A DNA stretch of 51,277 bases, from the sequence record NC_105513.1, one strand, 5' to 3'. Numbering within the stretch: the first letter of the stretch is position 1; each line of letters begins with the position of its first letter. Shown here in pieces: positions 3,970-41,142 of the stretch. Made by a program: the position numbers and the translations under genes. The notes beneath the pieces are model-generated. The model searched no databases. It was not told the origin of the DNA and saw only the letters and a program-made list of their open reading frames with translations. The stretch is from a phage.

Positions 3970-4455
3970 ATGAGCGAAGAAAATATTAGCACCATGTCGC
4001 GTAGTGAGTTCTGCGATATGCTTCGCAGCCTGGGCGCGGCAATTGGTAGCGGTGAGCGTAATGATGTATTCATGCCAGCACTTTTTTTGTGCGCTAACGT
4101 GGAGAACGGCGAAGCAATTACGGCATCGTACATGCGCCAAGTGGTCAACCGTGTGCCAGAAGTAAAGCAAAAAGGCGTGATCAGCATTAAGCGAAAGGTG
4201 ACTGATGAGGGTGATGGCTTTGTGTTTACGCTCACTGAAGCCAAAAGCAAGCCTCGCGTTCTGACTGGTGAAGAAATCGACGAGATCGCAGAAAAGCGCG
4301 CAGAGAAGGCGGTAAGCAAAATTCTTAATCACCTGGTAAACGTAATGCCAAATATCACAGACCTGGAAGGCGACAAACTTGCTGGGGCGTGTGAGGCTAT
4401 CGGGCGCTACCAGGATATGATTCGTAAACTCGCTGGAGGAAAAGAGGATGAATAA
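3970..4455 (+). CDS. hypothetical protein
   Basis: 161 aa from MSEENIST; RBS AAGGAG; downstream of TTGACA-17-AATAAT promoter. Confidence 0.6.
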   Translation: MSEENISTMSRSEFCDMLRSLGAAIGSGERNDVFMPALFLCANVENGEAITASYMRQVVNRVPEVKQKGVISIKRKVTDEGDGFVFTLTEAKSKPRVLTGEEIDEIAEKRAEKAVSKILNHLVNVMPNITDLEGDKLAGACEAIGRYQDMIRKLAGGKEDE

Positions 4456-27750: not shown

Positions 27751-30700
27751 ATGGCTGAAAATATGATAACGGGAAGTAAGGGCGGATCATCAAAACCTTA
27801 TGTTCCGAAAGAGATGGAAGATAACCTGATCTCAATCAACAAAATCAAAATTCTTCTTGCCGTTTCCGATGGCGAGTGCGATCCAGATTTTACACTTCGC
27901 GATCTGTATCTTGATGATGTTCCGGTAATTGCAGGCGACGGAACTGTTAACTACCAGGGTGTGAAAGCTGAATTTCGACCTGGAACGCAGACGCAAGATT
28001 ACATCCAGGGGTTTACTGACACATCAAGCGAAGTGACGCTGGCGCGTGACATTACGACAACAAATCCTTATGTAATTTCCGTAACCAACAAAACATTATC
28101 GGCTATCAGAATCAAAATGCTAATGCCAACAGGCATTAAGCAAGAGGATAACGGCGATCTTGTTGGCGTTAAGGTTACTTATGCTGTTGATATGGCTGTT
28201 GACGGAGACTCTTACAAAGAAGTATTGCGAGACACTATCGAAGGTAAAACGCGATCAGGTTACGACAGAAGCAGAAGGATTGACCTTCCGGCATTTAATG
28301 ATCGCGTATTACTTAGGGTTAGAAGGGTTACGGCAGACAGCACATCTTCTCGTGTTACTGATCTGATTAAACTACAAAGTTACGCTGAGGTTATTGATGC
28401 AAAATTCCGTTACCCTCTGACTGGTCTTGTATACGTTGAATTTGACAGTGAGTTGTTCCCTAACCAGATCCCTAACATTTCAATCAAGAAGAAATGGAAG
28501 TTGATTAATGTTCCGAGCAATTACGATCCGGTAATGCGAGAGTATCACGGTTCATGGGATGGTACGTTCAAAAAAGCGTGGTCGAACAATCCGGCGTGGG
28601 TACTTTATGACATTATCACAAACCAGCGATACGGATTAGATCAGAGAGAGCTTGGTGTGCAGGTTGACAAATGGAGTCTTTACGAAGCGGCGCAATACTG
28701 CGATCAGAAAGTGCCGGACGGAAAAGGCGGTACAGAGCCGCGTTATCTATGCGACGTTGTGATTCAAAGCCAGATTGAGGCTTATCAGCTTATTCGTGAT
28801 ATTTGCTCAATCTTCCGAGGAATGAGCTTTTGGAATGGAGAGAGCTTGTCAATCGTCATTGATAAGCCGCGCGATCCGTCGTACATCTTCACCAATGACA
28901 ACGTTGTTGATGGTGATTTTCAGTACACAACAGCAAGCGAAAAGAGCATGTACACGCAGTGCAACGTGACGTTCGACGACGAACAAAACATGTATCAACA
29001 GGACGTAGAGGGCGTATTCGACACCGAGGCTGCATTGCGCTTTGGATACAATCCGACAAGCATAACAGCGATCGGATGTACACGCAGGAGTGAGGCTAAT
29101 CGGCGCGGTCGATGGATACTAAAAACCAACTTGCGCAGCACTACGGTAAACTTTGCTACTGGACTGGAAGGAATGATCCCATCAATAGGTGATGTGATTG
29201 CTATTGCTGACAACTTTCACAGCAGCAACCTTAAATTAAACCTATCAGGGCGCGTGATGGAAGTTTCCGGCTTGCAGGTGTTCGTTCCGTTTAAGATTGA
29301 CGCGCGACCAGGTGATTTCATTATCATCAACAAACCGGACGGAAAGCCAGTTAAGCGCACAATCTCAAAAGTAAGCGGCGACGGAAAAACCATTGAACTA
29401 AACATTGGGTTTGGGTTTGAAGTTAAACCGGATACAGTTTTTGCAATCGACCGCACTGATATTGCATTGCAGCAATACGTTGTAACGAGTATCGGCAAAG
29501 GTGATGATGATGATGAATTTACATACTCCATCACGGCTGTTGAATATGACCCGAACAAATACGACGAGATTGATTACGGAGTAAACATTGACGACAGGCC
29601 AACTTCAATTGTCCAGCCTGACACAATGGCAGCACCGGAAAACGTGCAAATATCCTCATACTCGCGAATTGTCCAGGGTGCAAGCGTTGAAACAATGGTT
29701 GTGTCGTGGGATAAAGTACCTTACGCATCGCTGTATGAAATGCAATGGCGAAAAGGTGATGGAAACTGGCTGAATACACCACAGACCGCAAACAAAGAAA
29801 TTGAGGTTGAAGGTATTTATTCAGGAAACTACCAGGTAAGGGTTAGATCTGTTTCCGCTTCAGGTTCTACTTCTCCGTGGTCCAGAATTGTGACAGCATC
29901 ACTGACTGGTAAGGTAGGAGAGCCAGGCGCGCCAGTTAACTTAACAGCATCCGACAATGAAGTGTTTGGCATTCGTGTTAAGTGGGGGATGCCAGAAGGG
30001 AGCGGGGACACGGCATACATTGAGCTTCATCAGTCGCCGGATGGAACGGCTGAAAACTCAAGCCTGCTAACGCTGATCCCGTATCCACAATATGAATACT
30101 GGCACGGTACGCTTCCGGCTGGTCATGTTGTATGGTATCGGATCAGGAGCGTGGACAGGATCGGCAACGTTTCCGGTTGGACTGATTTTGTTAGAGGTAT
30201 GGCTTCAGATGATGTGGAGGCTGTTTTAGGAGATATTCTTGATAAGATTTTTGATACTGAAGCAGGTCAGGATCTTAAAGAGAACGCCATTGACAGTGCA
30301 AACAAGATAAAGGACCAGGCGCAAGCAATCATCCAGAATGCTCTTGCTAATGATGCTGATATTAAGTGGACGCGAGTACAAAACGGAAAGAGAAAGGCTG
30401 AATATGGTCACGCTCTTGAGCTTATCGCCACAGAGACTGAGGCGCGAGTTACGCAGATTGAAGAATTGAGGGCGTCAATCGACGAGGATATTGTTTCAAG
30501 CATAAAGACAGTGCAGGAGGCTATCGCCACAGAATCTGAAACGCGAGCAACTCAAATAAACGCTTTGGATTCAAAATTCACAACTGAAATTGACGGCGTA
30601 AAACGCAATACAGCAGCAAGCATTAATCAGGTGAATCAAACAATTGCCAATGAATCAGAGGCGCGAGCGCAGGCCGTTAACGCGCTTGATGCGAAGTTCA

Positions 30701-31329
30701 CAAAGGAGATCGAAGATTTAAACGGAGTCATTAAGACTGAGGTTGAGGCTAACATCTCTGAAGTGAAACAGGCTATCGCTAATGAGACAGAAGCAAGGGT
30801 GCAGGCTGACCAGGCTTTAACAGCTAAATTCGGAGACGTTGAATCTGCATTAGCTCAAAAACTTGATTCGTGGGCTGGCGTGTCATCTGTTGGTGCTAAA
30901 TACTCAATGAAATTGGGGTTAACATACAATGGGCAGAAGTACAGCGCAGGAATGGTAATGCAGCTTTCGCAGAGTTCATCCGGCCTTGTCTCGCAAATCT
31001 TGTTTGACGCGAACAGGTTCGCGATCATGACAAGTTCGACTGGCGGGGTGTATACATTGCCTTTCGTGGTGGAAAATAACCAGGTATTCATTAACAGCCT
31101 GTTAGTTAAAAACGGTTCAATTACAAATGCCATGATCGGTAATTATATTCAGTCGAATAACTTTGTTGCCAATCAGCAGGGTTGGAGGCTGGATAAAAAC
31201 GGCAGATTTGAGAACTACGGTTCTACGTCTGGAGAGGGGGCCATGAAGTTGACCAATGAAACGATAAGTGTACGAGATGCAAACGGGCGCTTGCGTGTTC
31301 AGATTGGTAGGCTTACTGGTACGTGGTAA
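27751..31329 (+). CDS. central tail fibre / host specificity protein (lambda J-like)
   Basis: 1192 aa; FN3-like segments; C-terminal repeated coiled-coil units; position after K/I. Confidence 0.85.
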   Translation: MAENMITGSKGGSSKPYVPKEMEDNLISINKIKILLAVSDGECDPDFTLRDLYLDDVPVIAGDGTVNYQGVKAEFRPGTQTQDYIQGFTDTSSEVTLARDITTTNPYVISVTNKTLSAIRIKMLMPTGIKQEDNGDLVGVKVTYAVDMAVDGDSYKEVLRDTIEGKTRSGYDRSRRIDLPAFNDRVLLRVRRVTADSTSSRVTDLIKLQSYAEVIDAKFRYPLTGLVYVEFDSELFPNQIPNISIKKKWKLINVPSNYDPVMREYHGSWDGTFKKAWSNNPAWVLYDIITNQRYGLDQRELGVQVDKWSLYEAAQYCDQKVPDGKGGTEPRYLCDVVIQSQIEAYQLIRDICSIFRGMSFWNGESLSIVIDKPRDPSYIFTNDNVVDGDFQYTTASEKSMYTQCNVTFDDEQNMYQQDVEGVFDTEAALRFGYNPTSITAIGCTRRSEANRRGRWILKTNLRSTTVNFATGLEGMIPSIGDVIAIADNFHSSNLKLNLSGRVMEVSGLQVFVPFKIDARPGDFIIINKPDGKPVKRTISKVSGDGKTIELNIGFGFEVKPDTVFAIDRTDIALQQYVVTSIGKGDDDDEFTYSITAVEYDPNKYDEIDYGVNIDDRPTSIVQPDTMAAPENVQISSYSRIVQGASVETMVVSWDKVPYASLYEMQWRKGDGNWLNTPQTANKEIEVEGIYSGNYQVRVRSVSASGSTSPWSRIVTASLTGKVGEPGAPVNLTASDNEVFGIRVKWGMPEGSGDTAYIELHQSPDGTAENSSLLTLIPYPQYEYWHGTLPAGHVVWYRIRSVDRIGNVSGWTDFVRGMASDDVEAVLGDILDKIFDTEAGQDLKENAIDSANKIKDQAQAIIQNALANDADIKWTRVQNGKRKAEYGHALELIATETEARVTQIEELRASIDEDIVSSIKTVQEAIATESETRATQINALDSKFTTEIDGVKRNTAASINQVNQTIANESEARAQAVNALDAKFTKEIEDLNGVIKTEVEANISEVKQAIANETEARVQADQALTAKFGDVESALAQKLDSWAGVSSVGAKYSMKLGLTYNGQKYSAGMVMQLSQSSSGLVSQILFDANRFAIMTSSTGGVYTLPFVVENNQVFINSLLVKNGSITNAMIGNYIQSNNFVANQQGWRLDKNGRFENYGSTSGEGAMKLTNETISVRDANGRLRVQIGRLTGTW
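30420..30840 (+). repeat. imperfect tandem repeats in C-terminal region of J-like gene
   Basis: four units starting about 30424, 30523, 30643, 30775 encoding IA-x-E-(T/S)-E-(A/T)-R...NALD-x-KFT-x-EI. Confidence 0.6.
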
Positions 31330-34219: not shown

Positions 34220-34498
34220 ATGGAAAACAAACAAGTGTCAGAGGTAGCAGTTCATATCAATAATTTTGCAACTGGCATGGCTATGTTGCTTCGTGATTTT
34301 GTTGCGCCGCTTGATCCAACGGCAGGCGCAGAAGAAATGGAGTACATCAGAAAAGTAATGGATGCAGTCGATAACGTCGTACTTGTTGCAACAATGAGCG
34401 AAGACAACGAGGAAGCAATCAAGGCGGTAAAAGAAAGCTCTGATCGCATGATGGAAAGTCTGATTAAATTACACACCAAAGAAGAAACAAAACATTAA
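34220..34498 (+). CDS. hypothetical acidic protein
   Basis: 92 aa, RBS AAGGAAA. Confidence 0.5.
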   Translation: MENKQVSEVAVHINNFATGMAMLLRDFVAPLDPTAGAEEMEYIRKVMDAVDNVVLVATMSEDNEEAIKAVKESSDRMMESLIKLHTKEETKH

Positions 34499-35726: not shown

Positions 35727-35969
35727 ACTTTCAGCCATCCCAAGCACGGCAATCACCTTAACAGCAATTCTCTTTGCAAGTTCAGTTTGATGAGCGTTAA
35801 GTTTTCCAGTGGTCATTATTGACAACATTCCGCTCATACTTCCAAGACCGTTAAAATCTGACATTGCCGATTTCATTATTGATATTGGCGAATGACCTTC
35901 ATCAGCTATTGTGTGCGCTCTCTCTGACAGGTCTTTAACTACCTGATCAATTCCTTCACTTTTCGTCAT
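35712..35969 (-). CDS. hypothetical protein
   Basis: 85 aa ORF; stop lies inside bidirectional terminator. Confidence 0.4.
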   Translation of the reverse strand: MTKSEGIDQVVKDLSERAHTIADEGHSPISIMKSAMSDFNGLGSMSGMLSIMTTGKLNAHQTELAKRIAVKVIAVLGMAESEKGA

Positions 35970-36447
35970 TTGCTTTTCCTTCAGGAGTTGATTGCTGTTC
36001 TGGCATTACAGGCCACGGGCTAATTGATTCCCTTTCTGCTACTGGCTTTTCAGGCTCAATTCCTAAAAACTTTCCTACAAACTCACCAACAAAATTTGAG
36101 CTATCGCTTACATAAACATGCATCCTGTCTAGATCTGCAACCGTAACGCTATTTGGTGCGATCATGATCCTCTGTTGGTGAAAACCGATATACATCACAT
36201 TAGCCGGACGCTCAAGAGTCCCCATATTTGGCGCAATTACGCCCATTATCCAACAATAATGAATGTTGCCATCAAGCGGCTCACATCCAGCGTTAAGCCA
36301 GTTTACTTTCTGGTGAGGAAACGCCATCGATGAATCAGTAGCATCACGCCGTAACGACCATTTAACGCCGCCAATCTCAATGATTTGTTTCGGCCTCATC
36401 CCGTTGAATTGAGTCACGCCAGCGCCATTTTGATTAATGTTTTGCAT
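35956..36447 (-). CDS. hypothetical protein
   Basis: 163 aa ORF. Confidence 0.5.
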   Translation of the reverse strand: MQNINQNGAGVTQFNGMRPKQIIEIGGVKWSLRRDATDSSMAFPHQKVNWLNAGCEPLDGNIHYCWIMGVIAPNMGTLERPANVMYIGFHQQRIMIAPNSVTVADLDRMHVYVSDSSNFVGEFVGKFLGIEPEKPVAERESISPWPVMPEQQSTPEGKANDEK

Positions 36448-36831: not shown

Positions 36832-37536
36832 TTAGCAACCGCAGCAGCCAGTCGGCGGAGTCGCCGGAGTAGGCAACTTGAAGTTTACCAGTTGCTCGAC
36901 CTGGTTGATTTTGCAATTCAGTGCGGCGGTCTGGTTTGCCTGAGAAAGAGCAAAACGAGCCTCCTGCAACTGAGCTTTCATATCACAAATCAGAACAGCC
37001 TGAGAATCAGCGAACTGTTGACGAATCAGATCTCGCGTTGCATTGCCTTGTCGCTCAATATTCAGGTTTGTCTCACAGCAACATCTCTCCGCTGCAATCT
37101 GTGCCTGATAGGAACGCTCAAGAGCATTAACATCAGCAGCATTAATCGCAGCAACTGTCTGGTTAGTACCGCTAACAATCGCGGTATTCAGTCCGGCGAA
37201 ACCTTGCACCGATGCAAGCAGGTTTTGCGTATTCTGGCTGGTAATGCCGTTAAAGGTTGATGCGGCGGAGCGCTCAACGGCAAGGTTTGTGGAGTTTTGG
37301 CCTTGCAGAGTTTGCAGCCCCAGGTTGTTTACGCCTGTCTGGATGTTATTAATACCATCAAGAACAGCGTTAGCACCGACAGCAACAGCCGCACCATCAC
37401 CACCATAACCACCACGACCATTAAAGCCGTTACCAAACCATGACCCAATCAGGCCGCCAACAGCACCGCCAAGTCCAGCCGCGCCAGCTTCGCCACCAAA
37501 ACCACCACCAGTAGGGAGTAAAGTCATATCCGACAT
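36832..37536 (-). CDS. glycine-rich protein of unknown function
   Basis: 234 aa from MSDMTLLPTGGG (RBS AAGAGGAA); Gly-rich N-terminus, Gln/Asn-rich helical middle, C-terminus PTGCCGC; terminators on both sides. Confidence 0.55.
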   Translation of the reverse strand: MSDMTLLPTGGGFGGEAGAAGLGGAVGGLIGSWFGNGFNGRGGYGGDGAAVAVGANAVLDGINNIQTGVNNLGLQTLQGQNSTNLAVERSAASTFNGITSQNTQNLLASVQGFAGLNTAIVSGTNQTVAAINAADVNALERSYQAQIAAERCCCETNLNIERQGNATRDLIRQQFADSQAVLICDMKAQLQEARFALSQANQTAALNCKINQVEQLVNFKLPTPATPPTGCCGC

Positions 37537-37670: not shown

Positions 37671-37700
37671 CGAAAAAAGGCGCAGCCTAAGCCGCGCCTT
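37671..37700 (-). terminator. rho-independent terminator after tail fibre gene
   Basis: minus strand AAGGCGCGGC-TTAG-GCTGCGCCTT then TTTTTCG. Confidence 0.65.
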
Positions 37701-37714
37701 GTGATTATTTTTTG

Positions 37715-40111
37715 TTAACTCTCAAGAGTTGTTGGCTTGTTGATCAATGCAGAAACAGCCGCTTTTAACTCCTCTATTTCTTCTCTCATTGATTTCAAGT
37801 CTTCTTCTTGCTCCTTACATACCTGAAGTAAATATGCTGAAATTGCTGAGTAATCAACTTGTAAAAATTCAGCTTTACCTATTAACTCACTTCCGTCTTT
37901 CGTCGGCCCTTGAAGATAATCATAATCCTCAAAAGTGCTAACAGCTTCAGGAATAACTCCTTGAACTTCTTGTGCTATAACTCCAACATGACGAGATCCA
38001 TCTTTCTTAAGTGTGTATGAATACCCACACAGTTTACTAAGTCCATCCCTTGCATTCTTAAGTGGTTTTATATCTTCCTTAAGATTTACATCCGATCCCT
38101 GGTTGAAAGCGCTTGCGTTTACAGGTCCGTTAACCTGAAGATGCTTTGTGTTATTTGAGTTTAATTGCGCATAAAAAACCCACCCAGGGCCATTATCGAA
38201 ACCACACTCAATAACCGACAATCGATCTGACCCATTACCCCACAATTTGAAGGTTGCAGGGTGTGACGAGTTGCCGTCGTTCAGCATTTTGAAATACTTT
38301 CCGCTCGGACGGTCGATCTCTAAACTTGCGGCCTGGACGTATGCCTTGCCCGCAAAATTCTTTGTACCAAGCACAACGCCGTCTGTGATCAGATCAACCT
38401 TAGACGATGTAACATCGTTCAGGAATAGCGCGTTCGCCCCAGTGTCCTTCCCTAAAAACCAAAGACGCGTGCCTGCTGAGTTGTACCCTGTTACGTGCAG
38501 TGGTTGGTTGTTTGTTGACGTTGTTCCGTCGATCCGGAAGCCACCATTAGCGGTTGTAACTTTAATGCTGGGTACGGTCATAGCAAATGTGCCACTGGCT
38601 GCAAGGCCATTATAGGCAATCAGCTTGTTGTCATATGCAAGCTCACCATTGTCCCTTAATTGCAAGAATTTATTAGATGCCGAGTTGGAAACAGAAACAT
38701 CATTAGGCCAGGTGCGAAGAACTGCGCGCTTTTCGTCCCCTCTAGCCTCCACCGAAGAACCAGCGACCACCCCAGAAAAAGTCGGCGACGACCCCGCGTT
38801 ATACAGTTCGTACCACTGCGACCATGGGCCAGTCGTCGCGTTGCCTAGCCATCGAATCCAACGCCGCCCGTTGCCGTAGGCGGTGTACGTCTGTACGCAA
38901 CTCTTCGGATCGTTAGCACCGGATCTTTGCACCAGTAAACAACCCGCCATGTTAATAGGATAGTTACGCTCTGGGGTGGCGTTAGCCGACATGGACTGAT
39001 AATAAAATCCAGCCTTATCACCCTGAAGGATGTTAAGGTCTTCGCTAACCAACGTTGCCCGTCGCTCATGCATGACCTGAAGGTTGGCGCGCGCTCCCTG
39101 GTCGTTCGATGCGCCTGTCCCGCCGTCCCCGATCGCCACGTCACCGTTAGCACCCAGCTTCGCCAGTTCAATGGCGCCAACACTTCCCGACGCACCGTTG
39201 ATCGCGTTGTTGTTCCCCGAGAAAACTTTAACGCGCGAGGTTTGCCAATCAACGTTGATTGCAAAGAATGTATCCCCCGCGCCTCCACATACGCCAGGTC
39301 CGTATCTGAAAGGGGTCATCTCACCCGATGGGAACTGCGAAATATCATCGACGCGCCAGAATCCTCCTTTGACCGTATCGCGCAACCGCTTGAGCATATC
39401 CCTTACGCCAGTCGGTGCCGGTAATGTTACGCCAGCATACGGCACTCTATTTTGAGCTTCTGAGCTTTCAGCAGCAGCCGCTGCGCGATCAGCCTCTGTT
39501 TTAGCCTTGTTCGCACTGTTTGCAGCATTAGTTTCAGATGTTTTGGCGTTTGTCTCAGAAGTCTTCGCGGCACTAGCCGAGTTAGCAGCATTAGTTTCCG
39601 ATGTTTTAGCCGCATTCTTACTTGCATTAGCTGCATTTTCAGATGCTTTGGCATTAGTTTCCGATGTTTTAGCGTTTGTCTCAGAAGTCTTCGCAGCGCT
39701 GGCGCTTTGTTTTGCTGATTCAGCGCCTTGCTTGACTTGATTTACAAGATCCTTCAATCCTTCAAGATCGAAATCTCTAAAAAATTCAAGTGCGTCAGCG
39801 ATCTCTGTTTCTTTGCTTTGATAGTAACGCAATGTTTCAGCTACATCTTGAGCAAGACCATCAACAGTTATTGAGTCATGAAGTAAGATCGCGTAATTTG
39901 AACGGGCAACTACCGCGCCACCAGTTGTAATTGCACGAATGCTTGTATCGTTAATAACTTCAGTTATCACGGCAATCTGCAACGGCTGAGTTAAAAATAC
40001 AATAGTTGCACCAGGGCGAATGAGCGTTAGTTGCTCTCGCCATTTTGTGTCGTATCCAGTGATATAACCTTGCGCGTCCATTGACGCTTGTCCTGTTCTG
40101 TAAATTGCCAT
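37715..40111 (-). CDS. L-shaped (side) tail fibre, T5 pb1-like, with C-terminal intramolecular chaperone domain
   Basis: 798 aa from MAIYRTGQ (RBS GGAGAAA); AAKTSETNA-type repeats as in T5 pb1; C-terminal segment resembling S74 self-cleaving chaperone domain. Confidence 0.8.
39480..39720 (-). repeat. in-frame tandem repeats (about 62-bp period) inside tail fibre gene
   Basis: GCATTAGTTTC(A/C)GATGTTTT(G/A)GC recurs at about 39527, 39589, 39651; encodes AAKTSETNA-type repeats. Confidence 0.7.
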
Positions 40112-40169: not shown

Positions 40170-40193
40170 AAAAAAAACCCCGCAATGCGGGGT
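40170..40193 (-). terminator. rho-independent terminator after primase-like gene
   Basis: ACCCCGC-AAT-GCGGGGT; minus strand followed by eight U. Confidence 0.65.
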
Positions 40194-40209: not shown

Positions 40210-41142
40210 TTAGAGAATTGATTCAGGTTTGAAAACCTTCCTCTCTATCCCTTGCCTGTAATTATCATTAATCGGCATCATAATTTCAAGACCTCTTTCC
40301 TCTGCGGCAATGATAGCGTCACGATCTGTGCTCTTACAGACAACTCGCATTCTTCTGTTGCCTTTATACCTGTAAGCAACAATCTCAATGTTAGTCGCAT
40401 CAAAGCAGGCCCAAACCTCTTGACCAGTTGCAAGGTGAATATGTTGCGCATCAATCCAGTCAACGCAAAGATAGATAGTCTTATCTGTGCTTCCTGTTCT
40501 CACAACCGACCCGCGCGTGTAATCCTTAGCGAGAAAAGATTTATTTCCTTCTTCATCAATGAAAAGCACATTGCACATTTCATCATCAATCTCATCTGAG
40601 TGTACCAGGTGACACGGTAGCGCGTGAATGTATCGACCATCTTTAACGCCGCATTCATAATAACCATCTTCAGGCGGATATATCCCTTCATATGTACTTA
40701 ACGGCGTGCGATCAAATTTTAGTGTTTTTGACATAACGCGCTCGCAGCATTCATGGCTTGCCTGCTTCCCAAACGAATAACCAGAATCACGAGATACTCG
40801 CTTATTTGCCTTGATCCTATAGTCCTGCGGAACTTTTCCAAGAAAGCGGCCCAAAATATTGATCACTTCGCTGTAAGGTTCTCCGGTTAGCTTCATGATC
40901 CAACCAATTCCAGTATCGTTTCCGCACACATTGCAGATAGCGCCGCCGTCGCCTTTTTTATCTCCAAGTTTATCAGTCCATCTAAAGCGATCCTTTCCGC
41001 CGCAGTGTGGGCAAGATTGATGCTTGCCGTTAAAAACTTCATTTGGAAGACCGCAAATACTTTGTAGCGCCTCACGCCATAATCCCTGCATATATGGGAG
41101 AACATCTTCCTTTTGATAAACCATAAAGTTTTCGTTATTCAT
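40210..41142 (-). CDS. putative DNA primase (zinc-ribbon, Toprim-like)
   Basis: 310 aa from [10 protein letters not shown] (RBS GAGGTG); CPHCGG...CNVCG zinc ribbon; acidic C-terminal domain. Confidence 0.5.

Follow-up and report, generated by a model that had tools for sequence, protein, structure and literature searches.

A long open reading frame that runs opposite to the structural module of a tailed phage raises the question of which kind of protein it encodes and, in particular, how far this protein resembles the L-shaped tail fibre pb1 of phage T5. The window considered here, i.e. the whole stretch of DNA that was analysed (51,277 nucleotides; NC_105513.1), covers the full genome of Escherichia phage JLBYU41, which belongs to the genus Hanrivervirus in the family Drexlerviridae. 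The reading frame and the signals that surround it are the following:

37715..40111, minus strand: lateral tail fibre gene, an intact reading frame of 798 aa
40119..40122, minus strand: GGAG ribosome-binding site, read from the sequence, 7 nt upstream of the ATG at 40111
40177..40193, minus strand: terminator-like hairpin and T-run between the primase and fibre genes (7-bp stem with 6 GC pairs, T8 tail; pattern match only)
37677..37700, minus strand: terminator-like hairpin just past the fibre stop codon (10-bp stem with 7 GC pairs; pattern match only)

The frame opens with an ATG at 40111 and closes with a TAA at 37715-37717. A TTG at 40171, directly after the upstream terminator hairpin, was considered as an alternative start and rejected; the ATG is preferred because it is preceded by the GGAG site and because the resulting protein matches the deposited one. 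This match is complete, with 100% identity to the GenBank entry "putative tail fiber protein [Escherichia phage JLBYU41]", and the identity and annotation of the phage are also backed by published work (PMC10373560). All PHROG matches of the 798-aa protein are to families annotated as "tail fiber". Recognition of the gene as a tail fibre is therefore correct and ordinary, as it has already been deposited and annotated as such.

Two other genes define the position of the fibre gene in the genome:

27751..31329, plus strand: J-like gene (phrog_31)
40210..41142, minus strand: DNA primase, the neighbour of the fibre gene (phrog_510, E 2.9e-108; Pfam Zn_Ribbon_Prim)

The end of the J-like gene and the fibre stop codon are 6,386 bp apart, in agreement with the original prediction of an opposite-strand fibre gene about 6 kb from the J-like gene and adjoining a primase. 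The same prediction took this layout for a mosaic arrangement, which is not the case. The gene order at the locus is the same in JLBYU09, damhaus, and Poky, and the position of the fibre gene, between the recombination and the primase/helicase genes, is canonical and syntenic in Drexlerviridae, where it has been described by Maffei 2021 (PMC8594841). In that study, conservation across the family was observed to be limited to the 5′ end of the fibre gene, and binding of the O-antigen was proposed for the fibre. From these sequence comparisons, mosaicism lies in the interior of the gene and not in its position. A Gly/Cys-rich gene downstream (36832..37536), without a Pfam match and in a PHROG of unassigned function, was weighed as a possible assembly factor for the fibre. 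This candidate was rejected because the gene is kept whichever fibre allele is present, as in damhaus, and is missing in Poky, although the distal module there is the same.

The protein begins with a putative anchor, followed by a helical stalk:

39767..40111, minus strand: N-terminal anchor, aa 1-115, with a predicted beta domain (aa 1-77) followed by short helices
39452..39766, minus strand: predicted continuous alpha-helix forming a coiled-coil stalk, aa 116-220 (single helix in the AF2 model, pLDDT 70-91)
39467..39718, minus strand: twelve KTSETNA-type heptads in 21-nt units, aa 132-215, with a 63/126-nt higher order
39536..39598, minus strand: 63-nt segment (aa 172-192), present in JLBYU41 and missing in A16a and Poky by DNA alignment

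In the AF2 model, the anchor consists of strands between residues 2 and 77, with a pLDDT of 66-89. Residues 1-121 are 99% identical to damhaus gp24, 98% to Henu8, and 59% to ULIM2, and the N-terminal (5′) anchor that is found family-wide in the lateral fibres of Drexlerviridae is present here. A PDB sequence search also aligned aa 1-173 to the Webervirus depolymerases 7LZJ, 7VYV, and 7VZ3, at an E-value near 1e-61 and about 70% identity. At E<=0.001, Foldseek found no structural match for the N-terminal model; the hits that it listed were small beta-barrel domains from Uba1 and F1-ATPase. Judged by its homologues, the anchor is of a Drexlerviridae-specific type.

The stalk helix shows a weak match to region 183-271 of T7 gp17, and the homologous region of the depolymerases DpK2 and Depo32 has been described as a triple helical bundle. 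Within the twelve heptads, position 2 is always Ala and position 5 is Ser in ten. Tandem Repeats Finder, run on 39450-39750 with a minimum score of 30, did not find the array; the repeat was instead demonstrated via self-identity at fixed shifts and a search for repeat pairs. Self-identity of the heptad DNA amounts to 0.51, 0.54, and 0.56 at shifts of 21, 63, and 126 nt, respectively, compared with 0.37 in codon shuffles (z of about 4.4-4.7; a value reached by none of 2000 shuffles) and with 0.24-0.27 in the remainder of the gene. In the best pair of repeats, two 53-nt copies that are 91% identical lie 126 nt apart. Thus, the tandem repeats of about 62 bp that had been proposed at 39480..39720 correspond reasonably well to the 63-nt higher-order unit of what is a degenerate repeat with a base period of 21 nt. 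The peptide motif TSETNA and its variants gave no relevant paper in a full-text literature search.

The length of the stalk varies among relatives. Close homologues have stalks of 59, 80, 87, 101, 122, and 185 aa, and nearly all steps between them are exact multiples of 21 aa (63 nt), which keeps the heptads in register. The 63-nt segment at 39536..39598 is flanked by the direct repeats AAAACATC(G/T)GAAACTAATGC, and homology to damhaus stops within the array. The repeats had been put forward as a recombination hotspot able to vary fibre length, with a comparison of copy number as the check; copy number does vary among relatives and, although Tandem Repeats Finder was silent, the clean 63-nt (21-aa) differences between them and the break in damhaus homology support this idea.

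Beyond the stalk lies the remainder of the protein:

38096..39451, minus strand: distal part of the mature fibre, aa 221-672, with its beta-rich shaft and receptor-binding end (similarity to Dhillonvirus welsh_11; AF2)
37718..38095, minus strand: intramolecular chaperone (Peptidase_S74), aa 673-798, 126 aa (Pfam PF13884; hhalign to pb1)
38078..38095, minus strand: codons of the predicted Ser/Lys catalytic dyad, S673-D-V-N-L-K678, aligned to S1264-DARL-K1269 of T5 pb1

The distal part is 88-95% identical in amino acids to that of Dhillonvirus welsh_11, with no identity to damhaus, and by tblastn the entire module is present in 13 Dhillonvirus and Drexlerviridae records. In addition, aa 325-537 share 31-35% identity with fibres of T5-like phages. 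The AF2 distal model is beta-rich, and its structural matches in BFVD are tail fibres, including T5-like L-shaped fibres and those of T1 and Tls. Against the PDB, Foldseek with the distal monomer gave low-TM matches only, to R-pyocin fibres, to single-layer sheets of the OspA type, and to noise resembling WD40. Confidence in the AF2 models, all of them monomers, is moderate (mean pLDDT 68 for the distal model and 72), and a monomer represents intertwined trimers poorly, so that this PDB result is uninformative about the fold of the tip. The phages that carry the distal module and have a host on record were isolated on E. coli, several of them on K-12 or DH5a, which lack the O-antigen; because of these hosts, nothing indicates a specific O-antigen as the target.

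The C-terminal domain is recognized more readily. The PF13884 match covers aa 673-724 (E 7.9e-15; 55.3 bits against a cut-off of 22), and the S74 domain also matches the chaperone domains of S16 gp37 and MYRF. In the AF2 model, this region forms a long beta-hairpin and a C-terminal helix (aa 754-790). The SDxxxK motif is present in 118 of 120 homologues and aligns to Ser1264 and Lys1269 of T5 pb1, catalytic residues that have been defined by experiment (PMC4690869); cleavage is predicted between Gly672 and Ser673. A chaperone-type C-terminus of about 130 aa had been anticipated, and the Pfam score above the cut-off, the extent of aa 673-798, and the aligned dyad bear this out. The AF2 helix, Pfam, and PHROG likewise agree with a lateral fibre of a lambda/T1-like siphovirus that has a heptad stalk and an S74 end.

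How far, then, does the likeness to T5 pb1 extend? All segments that are similar to pb1 follow the same order along both proteins. Near the N-terminus, aa 73-98 align to pb1 24-50, and the heptads that follow are aligned as well (hhalign probability 97%). BLASTP is significant over the repeats only, where aa 126-200 align to pb1 43-159 (E 3e-12; 45% identity with 36% gaps). In the shaft, aa 270-298 match pb1 436-464 weakly, and so do aa 370-495 to pb1 722-883 (hhalign probability 28%; E 6e-4). Finally, the chaperone region, aa 643-779, aligns to pb1 1232-1394 with a probability of 95.7% and an E-value of 9e-9. Similarity over the full length of pb1, including its N-terminal attachment region, was not found with phrog_24369, BLASTP, or hhalign; the pb1 family profile phrog_24369 matches aa 128-204 of the JLBYU41 fibre, compared with residues 1 to 1396 of pb1 itself. 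Similarity of the tip (aa ~500-672) to the pb1 "bullet" (970-1263) was likewise not found by PDB sequence search, hhalign, or Foldseek on the monomer, and 4UW7 and 4UW8 fall outside the top 50 Foldseek matches of the monomer distal model. The description as a pb1-like fibre therefore stands for the heptads and the short motif before them, for the chaperone domain, and weakly for two stretches of the shaft, and fails for the anchor and the receptor-binding tip.

The reading that best accommodates these observations, to which a probability of roughly 85% can be given, is that the gene encodes a homotrimeric accessory side fibre like those of Drexlerviridae, Dhillonvirus, and T5-like phages. According to this model, the N-terminal beta domain (aa 1 to ~115), an anchor by homology, would dock the trimer on a presumed partner at the tail tip. 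The twelve heptads, within a helix of ~105 residues, would form a three-stranded coiled-coil stalk of ~16 nm; helix and register come from prediction and sequence, and the trimeric state would follow that of homologues. By analogy with T5, the distal part (aa 221-672) may bind reversibly to a surface glycan, most likely the O-antigen or an LPS structure, which would speed up adsorption and allow the glycan layer to be crossed before the J-associated receptor-binding protein engages FhuA, on which JLBYU41 infection depends (PMC10373560). The S74 domain, present together with its dyad, would template trimer folding over its 126 aa and then probably be cut off by Ser673/Lys678 at Gly672|Ser673, unmasking the tip. 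The gene would evolve through an exchange of modules whose break points fall at the heptad array, and unequal recombination or slippage between 63-nt units would change the stalk in 21-aa steps of ~3 nm each. In the literature searched, no experiments on the JLBYU41 fibre protein were found, including virion proteomics or EM labelling.

A different function is suggested by the near 70% identity of aa 1-173 to 7LZJ, 7VYV, and 7VZ3, and by the "bullseye" plaques that JLBYU41 makes (PMC10373560): the protein could be an enzymatic tailspike akin to DpK2 and Depo32, a polysaccharide depolymerase that degrades capsule or O-antigen. Nevertheless, this similarity stops at aa ~173 and spans only the anchor and the helical bundle. 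No catalytic or beta-helix domain was found by Pfam, and the AF2 model consists of beta-hairpin sheets in which a right-handed beta-helix is not seen. The structural neighbours are fibres, the sole BFVD match named as a pectate lyase having a TM of 0.17, and the protein ends in an S74 chaperone domain of the fibre type, all of which makes a depolymerase quite improbable. Even less credence can be given to the fibre as an essential and irreversible receptor-binding protein instead of an accessory one. Truncation of the LPS core does lower JLBYU41 infectivity in some FhuA loop mutants, which could reflect contact between fibre and LPS, but infection is FhuA-dependent (both PMC10373560). Moreover, the terminal-receptor determinants of small siphoviruses map downstream of the J homologue, and the lateral fibres of T5 are dispensable on rough strains (both PMC8594841). 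The sister genome JLBYU09, whose record is 99.8% identical, points the same way, as its fibre gene is without two thirds of the sequence (aa ~193-717; a 1.58-kb gap at window 37946..39529). If the N calls in which its junction is rich are ignored, an in-frame T193|G718 fusion results. The reading of this gap as a natural knock-out that proves dispensability was downgraded because of these many N calls, and the "deletion" may be an artefact of assembly or of a mixed population.

A third view concerns the stalk, and it comes somewhat short of an even chance. The heptads could be a low-complexity coiled coil whose likeness to pb1 is convergent or compositional, with length differences that are neutral drift and tune no function. 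In effect, the repeat alignment to pb1 has 36% gaps and is built on a five-letter composition, and stalks of 59 to 185 aa occur on the same distal module, so that any coupling of length to receptor type is not tight. On the other hand, the similarity to pb1 reaches beyond the repeats, in an order that both proteins keep, and nearly all length steps are in-register multiples of 21 aa. The latter fits selection for an intact coiled coil and stops short of proving adaptive tuning.

Beyond the accessory side fibre itself, two wider ideas may be considered. The 63-nt cassettes, each of three heptads, could be an evolved "length dial", in which frequent unequal recombination yields coiled coils of ~9 to 27 nm; selection could then match reach to the thickness of O-antigen or capsule, whichever receptor-binding module is attached. 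The distal module, in turn, may bind a rough-LPS core structure rather than the O-antigen, as suggested by the E. coli isolation hosts on record, several of them K-12 or DH5a; if true, this would account for the reported influence of the LPS core on JLBYU41. The combination of the dial with possible core binding is speculative and rather unlikely. The significance of the locus beyond its correct annotation is small. Nevertheless, the natural stalk alleles with 63-nt repeat junctions are ready designs for testing fibre length against adsorption, and the map of boundaries between anchor, coil, distal module, and chaperone domain, whose modules are exchanged between Drexlerviridae and Dhillonvirus, helps in engineering fibre swaps.

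Among known systems, T5 pb1 (phrog_24369; PDB 4UW7 and 4UW8), which is kinked into an L and binds polymannose O-antigen, is alike in being an accessory side fibre of a siphovirus with KTSETNA-type heptads and an S74 domain with its dyad. It differs in length (1396 aa vs 798 aa), in its anchor domains, and in its locus, as the pb1 gene lies within the tail module beside its collar protein. With the wider S74 chaperones (K1F endosialidase, S16 gp37, and MYRF), the fibre shares the SDxxxK dyad, the predicted hairpin "tentacle", and the C-terminal coiled-coil helix; this relatedness is confined to the C-terminal 126 aa, and the cargo domains are unrelated. The Webervirus proteins DpK2 (RAD2) and Depo32 (GH-K3), from the same family, have a homologous anchor and triple-helical bundle (aa 1-173), but past the bundle they consist of a lyase/hydrolase body with a beta-helix fold, a CBM, and a small bundle of helices at the C-terminus, without S74.

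The closest counterparts are found in two groups. The fibres of Dhillonvirus (welsh_11, Gluttony, and PC2, with the architecture of RuthEpting Bas85 Gp29) follow the same plan of coiled coil, tip, and chaperone. In welsh_11, aa 223-650 are 88-95% identical, or ~92% at the nucleotide level, and the chaperone domains of these fibres are 67-69% identical. By contrast, their anchor and heptad sequences are unlike those of JLBYU41, with no significant match for aa 1-121, and their genome context is another one. The lateral fibres of Drexlerviridae, such as damhaus gp24, JakobBernoulli Bas07 Gp36, and those of T1 and Tls, share the minus-strand locus, which lies between the recombination/SSB genes and the primase, regulator, and helicase genes, as well as the N-terminal anchor, the coiled-coil stalk, the S74 end, and a variable distal part. 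In damhaus, for instance, the distal module is unrelated to aa 221-672 and the chaperone domain is 47% identical, whereas the JLBYU41 distal module is common to Dhillonvirus and a subset of Drexlerviridae. The architecture of "coiled coil, T5-like tip, chaperone domain" has already been published for the family in the BASEL papers, and fibres of the JLBYU41 kind, with this locus, a conserved 5′ end, a hypervariable remainder, and this architecture, are already known.

The lateral tail fibre protein of Escherichia phage JLBYU41 (798 aa, to which all residue numbers refer) can be separated into four modules. The gene, its surroundings and these modules are as follows:

37715..40111, minus strand: intact fibre open reading frame, with GGAG 7 nt 5′ of the ATG and a TAA stop
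40193-40177, minus strand: terminator-like hairpin on one flank of the fibre gene, recognized by pattern
37700-37677, minus strand: terminator-like hairpin on the other flank, recognized by pattern
27751..31329: J-like (central fibre) gene, with 6,386 bp between its end and the fibre stop
aa 1 to ~115: anchor, a predicted small beta domain (strands within aa 2-77) and then short helices
aa 116-220: stalk, one unbroken helix in the AF2 model (pLDDT 70-91)
aa 221-672: distal part, rich in beta structure (mean pLDDT of the model 68, some blocks >80)
aa 673-798: chaperone domain, Peptidase_S74 (E 7.9e-15)

Both halves of the window match genomes of Hanrivervirus, which are T1-like phages of the Drexlerviridae (Tempevirinae), at 94-99.8% identity with about 90% or more of the length covered. 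The fibre is 100% identical across its 798 aa to the ‘putative tail fiber protein [Escherichia phage JLBYU41]’, from a T1-like, FhuA-dependent phage (OK272479) that was isolated on E. coli K-12 (PMC10373560). About 20 GenBank records named ‘Campylobacter phage’ (host C. jejuni), including A16a, A15b, A123 and A118, also match the window. The one opened, A16a (MG065636), carries an UNVERIFIED flag, is classified as Hanrivervirus and shows ~94% identity to the window over 25 kb. The Campylobacter host given for it is very probably an error, to which contaminating T1-like coliphages may have led. Several deposited product names look wrong as well. In the record of the relative JLBYU09 (OK272487), a 92-aa ORF is named ‘tail length tape measure protein’ and a 163-aa ORF ‘TerL protein’ (window equivalents 34220..34498 and 35956..36447); the only PHROG match of the window counterpart of this ‘TerL’ is a family of unknown function. 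Likewise, a 150-aa gene of the Warwickvirus Poky (902-1354 of its locus), between a recombination gene and the fibre gene, is named ‘putative DNA primase’; SSB occupies this place in the window and in JLBYU09.

At the N-terminus, aa 1-173 match those of two depolymerases from Klebsiella phages of the genus Webervirus, DpK2 (7LZJ) and Depo32 (7VYV/7VZ3), with E ~1e-61; the matching region of these proteins, which their structures do not show at high resolution, is described as an anchor plus a triple helical bundle. At 1.5 Å per residue, the modelled stalk would be about 16 nm long. For the distal part, all neighbours in a library of predicted viral structures are tail fibres, including those of T5-like phages, T1, Tls and aaroes. 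The S74 chaperone-type C-terminus of the original prediction is confirmed by the Pfam match, and its model, a long beta-hairpin with a C-terminal helix of ~37 residues, agrees with the ‘tentacle plus coiled coil’ reported for the chaperone of pb1, the L-shaped tail fibre of phage T5 (1396 aa). The predicted dyad Ser673/Lys678 aligns to pb1 Ser1264/Lys1269, shown experimentally to drive autocleavage (PMC4690869), and the SDxxxK motif is found in 118 of the 120 best homologues.

The repeat region that had been predicted is also real: 12 heptads follow one another without interruption at aa 132-215 (nt 39467..39718). Position 2 is invariably Ala and position 5 is Ser in 10 of the 12, a 3-4 spacing of small residues typical of a coiled-coil core. 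The DNA unit is 21 nt, with higher-order periods of 63 and 126 nt (self-identity 0.51, 0.54 and 0.56 at shifts of 21, 63 and 126 nt), against 0.37 for codon shuffles (z ~4.5; 0 of 2000 as high) and ~0.25 for the remainder of the gene. The top repeat pair is 91% identical over 53 nt, at a spacing of 126 nt. Tandem Repeats Finder nevertheless called no array in the heptad region, because the repeats are too degenerate. Overlapping ORFs of 75 aa (minus strand) and 77 aa (plus strand) in other frames at 39427..39740 are spurious by-products of the repeats and not genes.

Variation in copy number, as anticipated, occurs among related isolates and metagenomic contigs. In close homologues whose flanks agree, the stretch from LVNQVK to QNR measures 59, 80, 87, 101 (JLBYU41), 122 or 185 aa; nearly all differences are multiples of 21 aa, and the missing 21-aa blocks vary between relatives (for instance, in homologues P0009 and P0010). 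In the DNA alignment with A16a and Poky, there is a single clean 63-nt gap (39536..39598) flanked by the direct repeats AAAACATC(G/T)GAAACTAATGC, a pattern characteristic of slippage or unequal recombination between units of three heptads. In most 185-aa alleles (P0002, P0004-P0006 and P0008), the array is interrupted midway by an insert outside the heptad pattern, TDAQRYRYESENFRNEASAAAANAKESETNSSANKAAAA, at which the coiled coil would break or stutter and might bend like a hinge; P0003 is equally long, yet has heptads throughout. No description of this polymorphism in 21-aa steps was found in the literature searched. It is a small, tidy observation, to be expected of repeat-encoded coiled coils.

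The fibre gene does lie about 6 kb from the J-like gene and adjoins a primase gene, but to call its position a mosaic arrangement was something of an overstatement, as the position itself is not mosaic. The order recombination genes, SSB, small ORFs, fibre, primase, regulator and helicase is common to JLBYU09, the Hanrivervirus damhaus and Poky, and Maffei et al. (2021) describe the locus as fully syntenic, the 5′ end being the only conserved part of the fibre gene. What is mosaic is the interior of the gene. The anchor belongs to the Hanrivervirus type (99% identity to damhaus), while aa 223-650 are 88-95% identical (~92% in nucleotides) to the fibre of welsh, a Dhillonvirus and so from a virus group other than that of JLBYU41. 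The chaperone domain is 100% identical in A16a, 66-69% in Poky and welsh, and 47% in damhaus. Nucleotide homology to damhaus ends within the heptad array, at 39687, and restarts directly after the stop codon.

Immediately downstream of the fibre gene (36832..37536, minus strand) is a conserved 234-aa gene, flanked by terminator-like hairpins of its own. Its product has a very Gly-rich N-terminus (GGGFGGEAGAAGLGGAVGG...), the Cys clusters CCCETN and, C-terminally, GCCGC, a match to phrog_9288 (function unknown) and no Pfam match. It is found in damhaus and JLBYU09 and is probably not a fibre-specific factor, since it is missing from Poky despite the same distal fibre module.

In the JLBYU09 record, 37946..39529 is absent, a loss of ~1.58 kb from the fibre gene; outside this gap, identity to the window is 99.8%. 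The gap has one end within the heptad array, and two fragment ORFs are annotated there. It is either an artefact of assembly or genuine, from a deletion mutant or a mixed population that was selected on K-12. When the N calls that fill the junction (4200-4280 of that locus) are ignored, an in-frame Thr193|Gly718 fusion would result, and a real deletion would mean that the fibre is dispensable on K-12. Because the junction is riddled with Ns, however, we do not rely on it.

The lateral fibres of T5 bind O-antigen reversibly, speed up adsorption and can be dispensed with on rough strains. Given this analogy and the FhuA dependence of JLBYU41, the fibre is most likely an accessory glycan-binding adhesin and may operate like pb1. 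The likeness to pb1 itself had been somewhat overstated. By BLASTP, the only significant match is the heptads (45% identity, 36% gaps, E 3e-12), others being weak, and phrog_24369, the PHROG of pb1, matches only aa 128-204. Profile comparison adds a short pre-repeat motif (pb1 YTVVLSNSISSITAADVTSAI, inside a 97%-probability match), two weak matches in the shaft (aa 270-298 to pb1 436-464; aa 370-495 to pb1 722-883, probability 28%, E 6e-4) and the entire chaperone domain (95.7%, E 9e-9). Several T5-like phages have long tail fibres that tblastn aligns to aa 325-537 at 31-35% identity. The pb1-matching segments are collinear in both proteins, which argues for a distant common ancestor of the scaffold. 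No counterpart of the pb1 anchor domain or receptor-binding tip (970-1263) was detected, so the fibre is not a pb1 orthologue and belongs to the Drexlerviridae lateral-fibre family. The original prediction is correct in substance but not new: the gene already carries a tail fibre annotation, and the architecture is that of Humolli et al. Finally, phrog_24159 matches aa 1-219 of the fibre with its N-terminal end and pb1 891-1396 with its C-terminal end. Fibres that join a Drexlerviridae-type anchor and coil to a pb1-type distal end must therefore exist, which is direct evidence for exchange of fibre modules between T1-like and T5-like phages.
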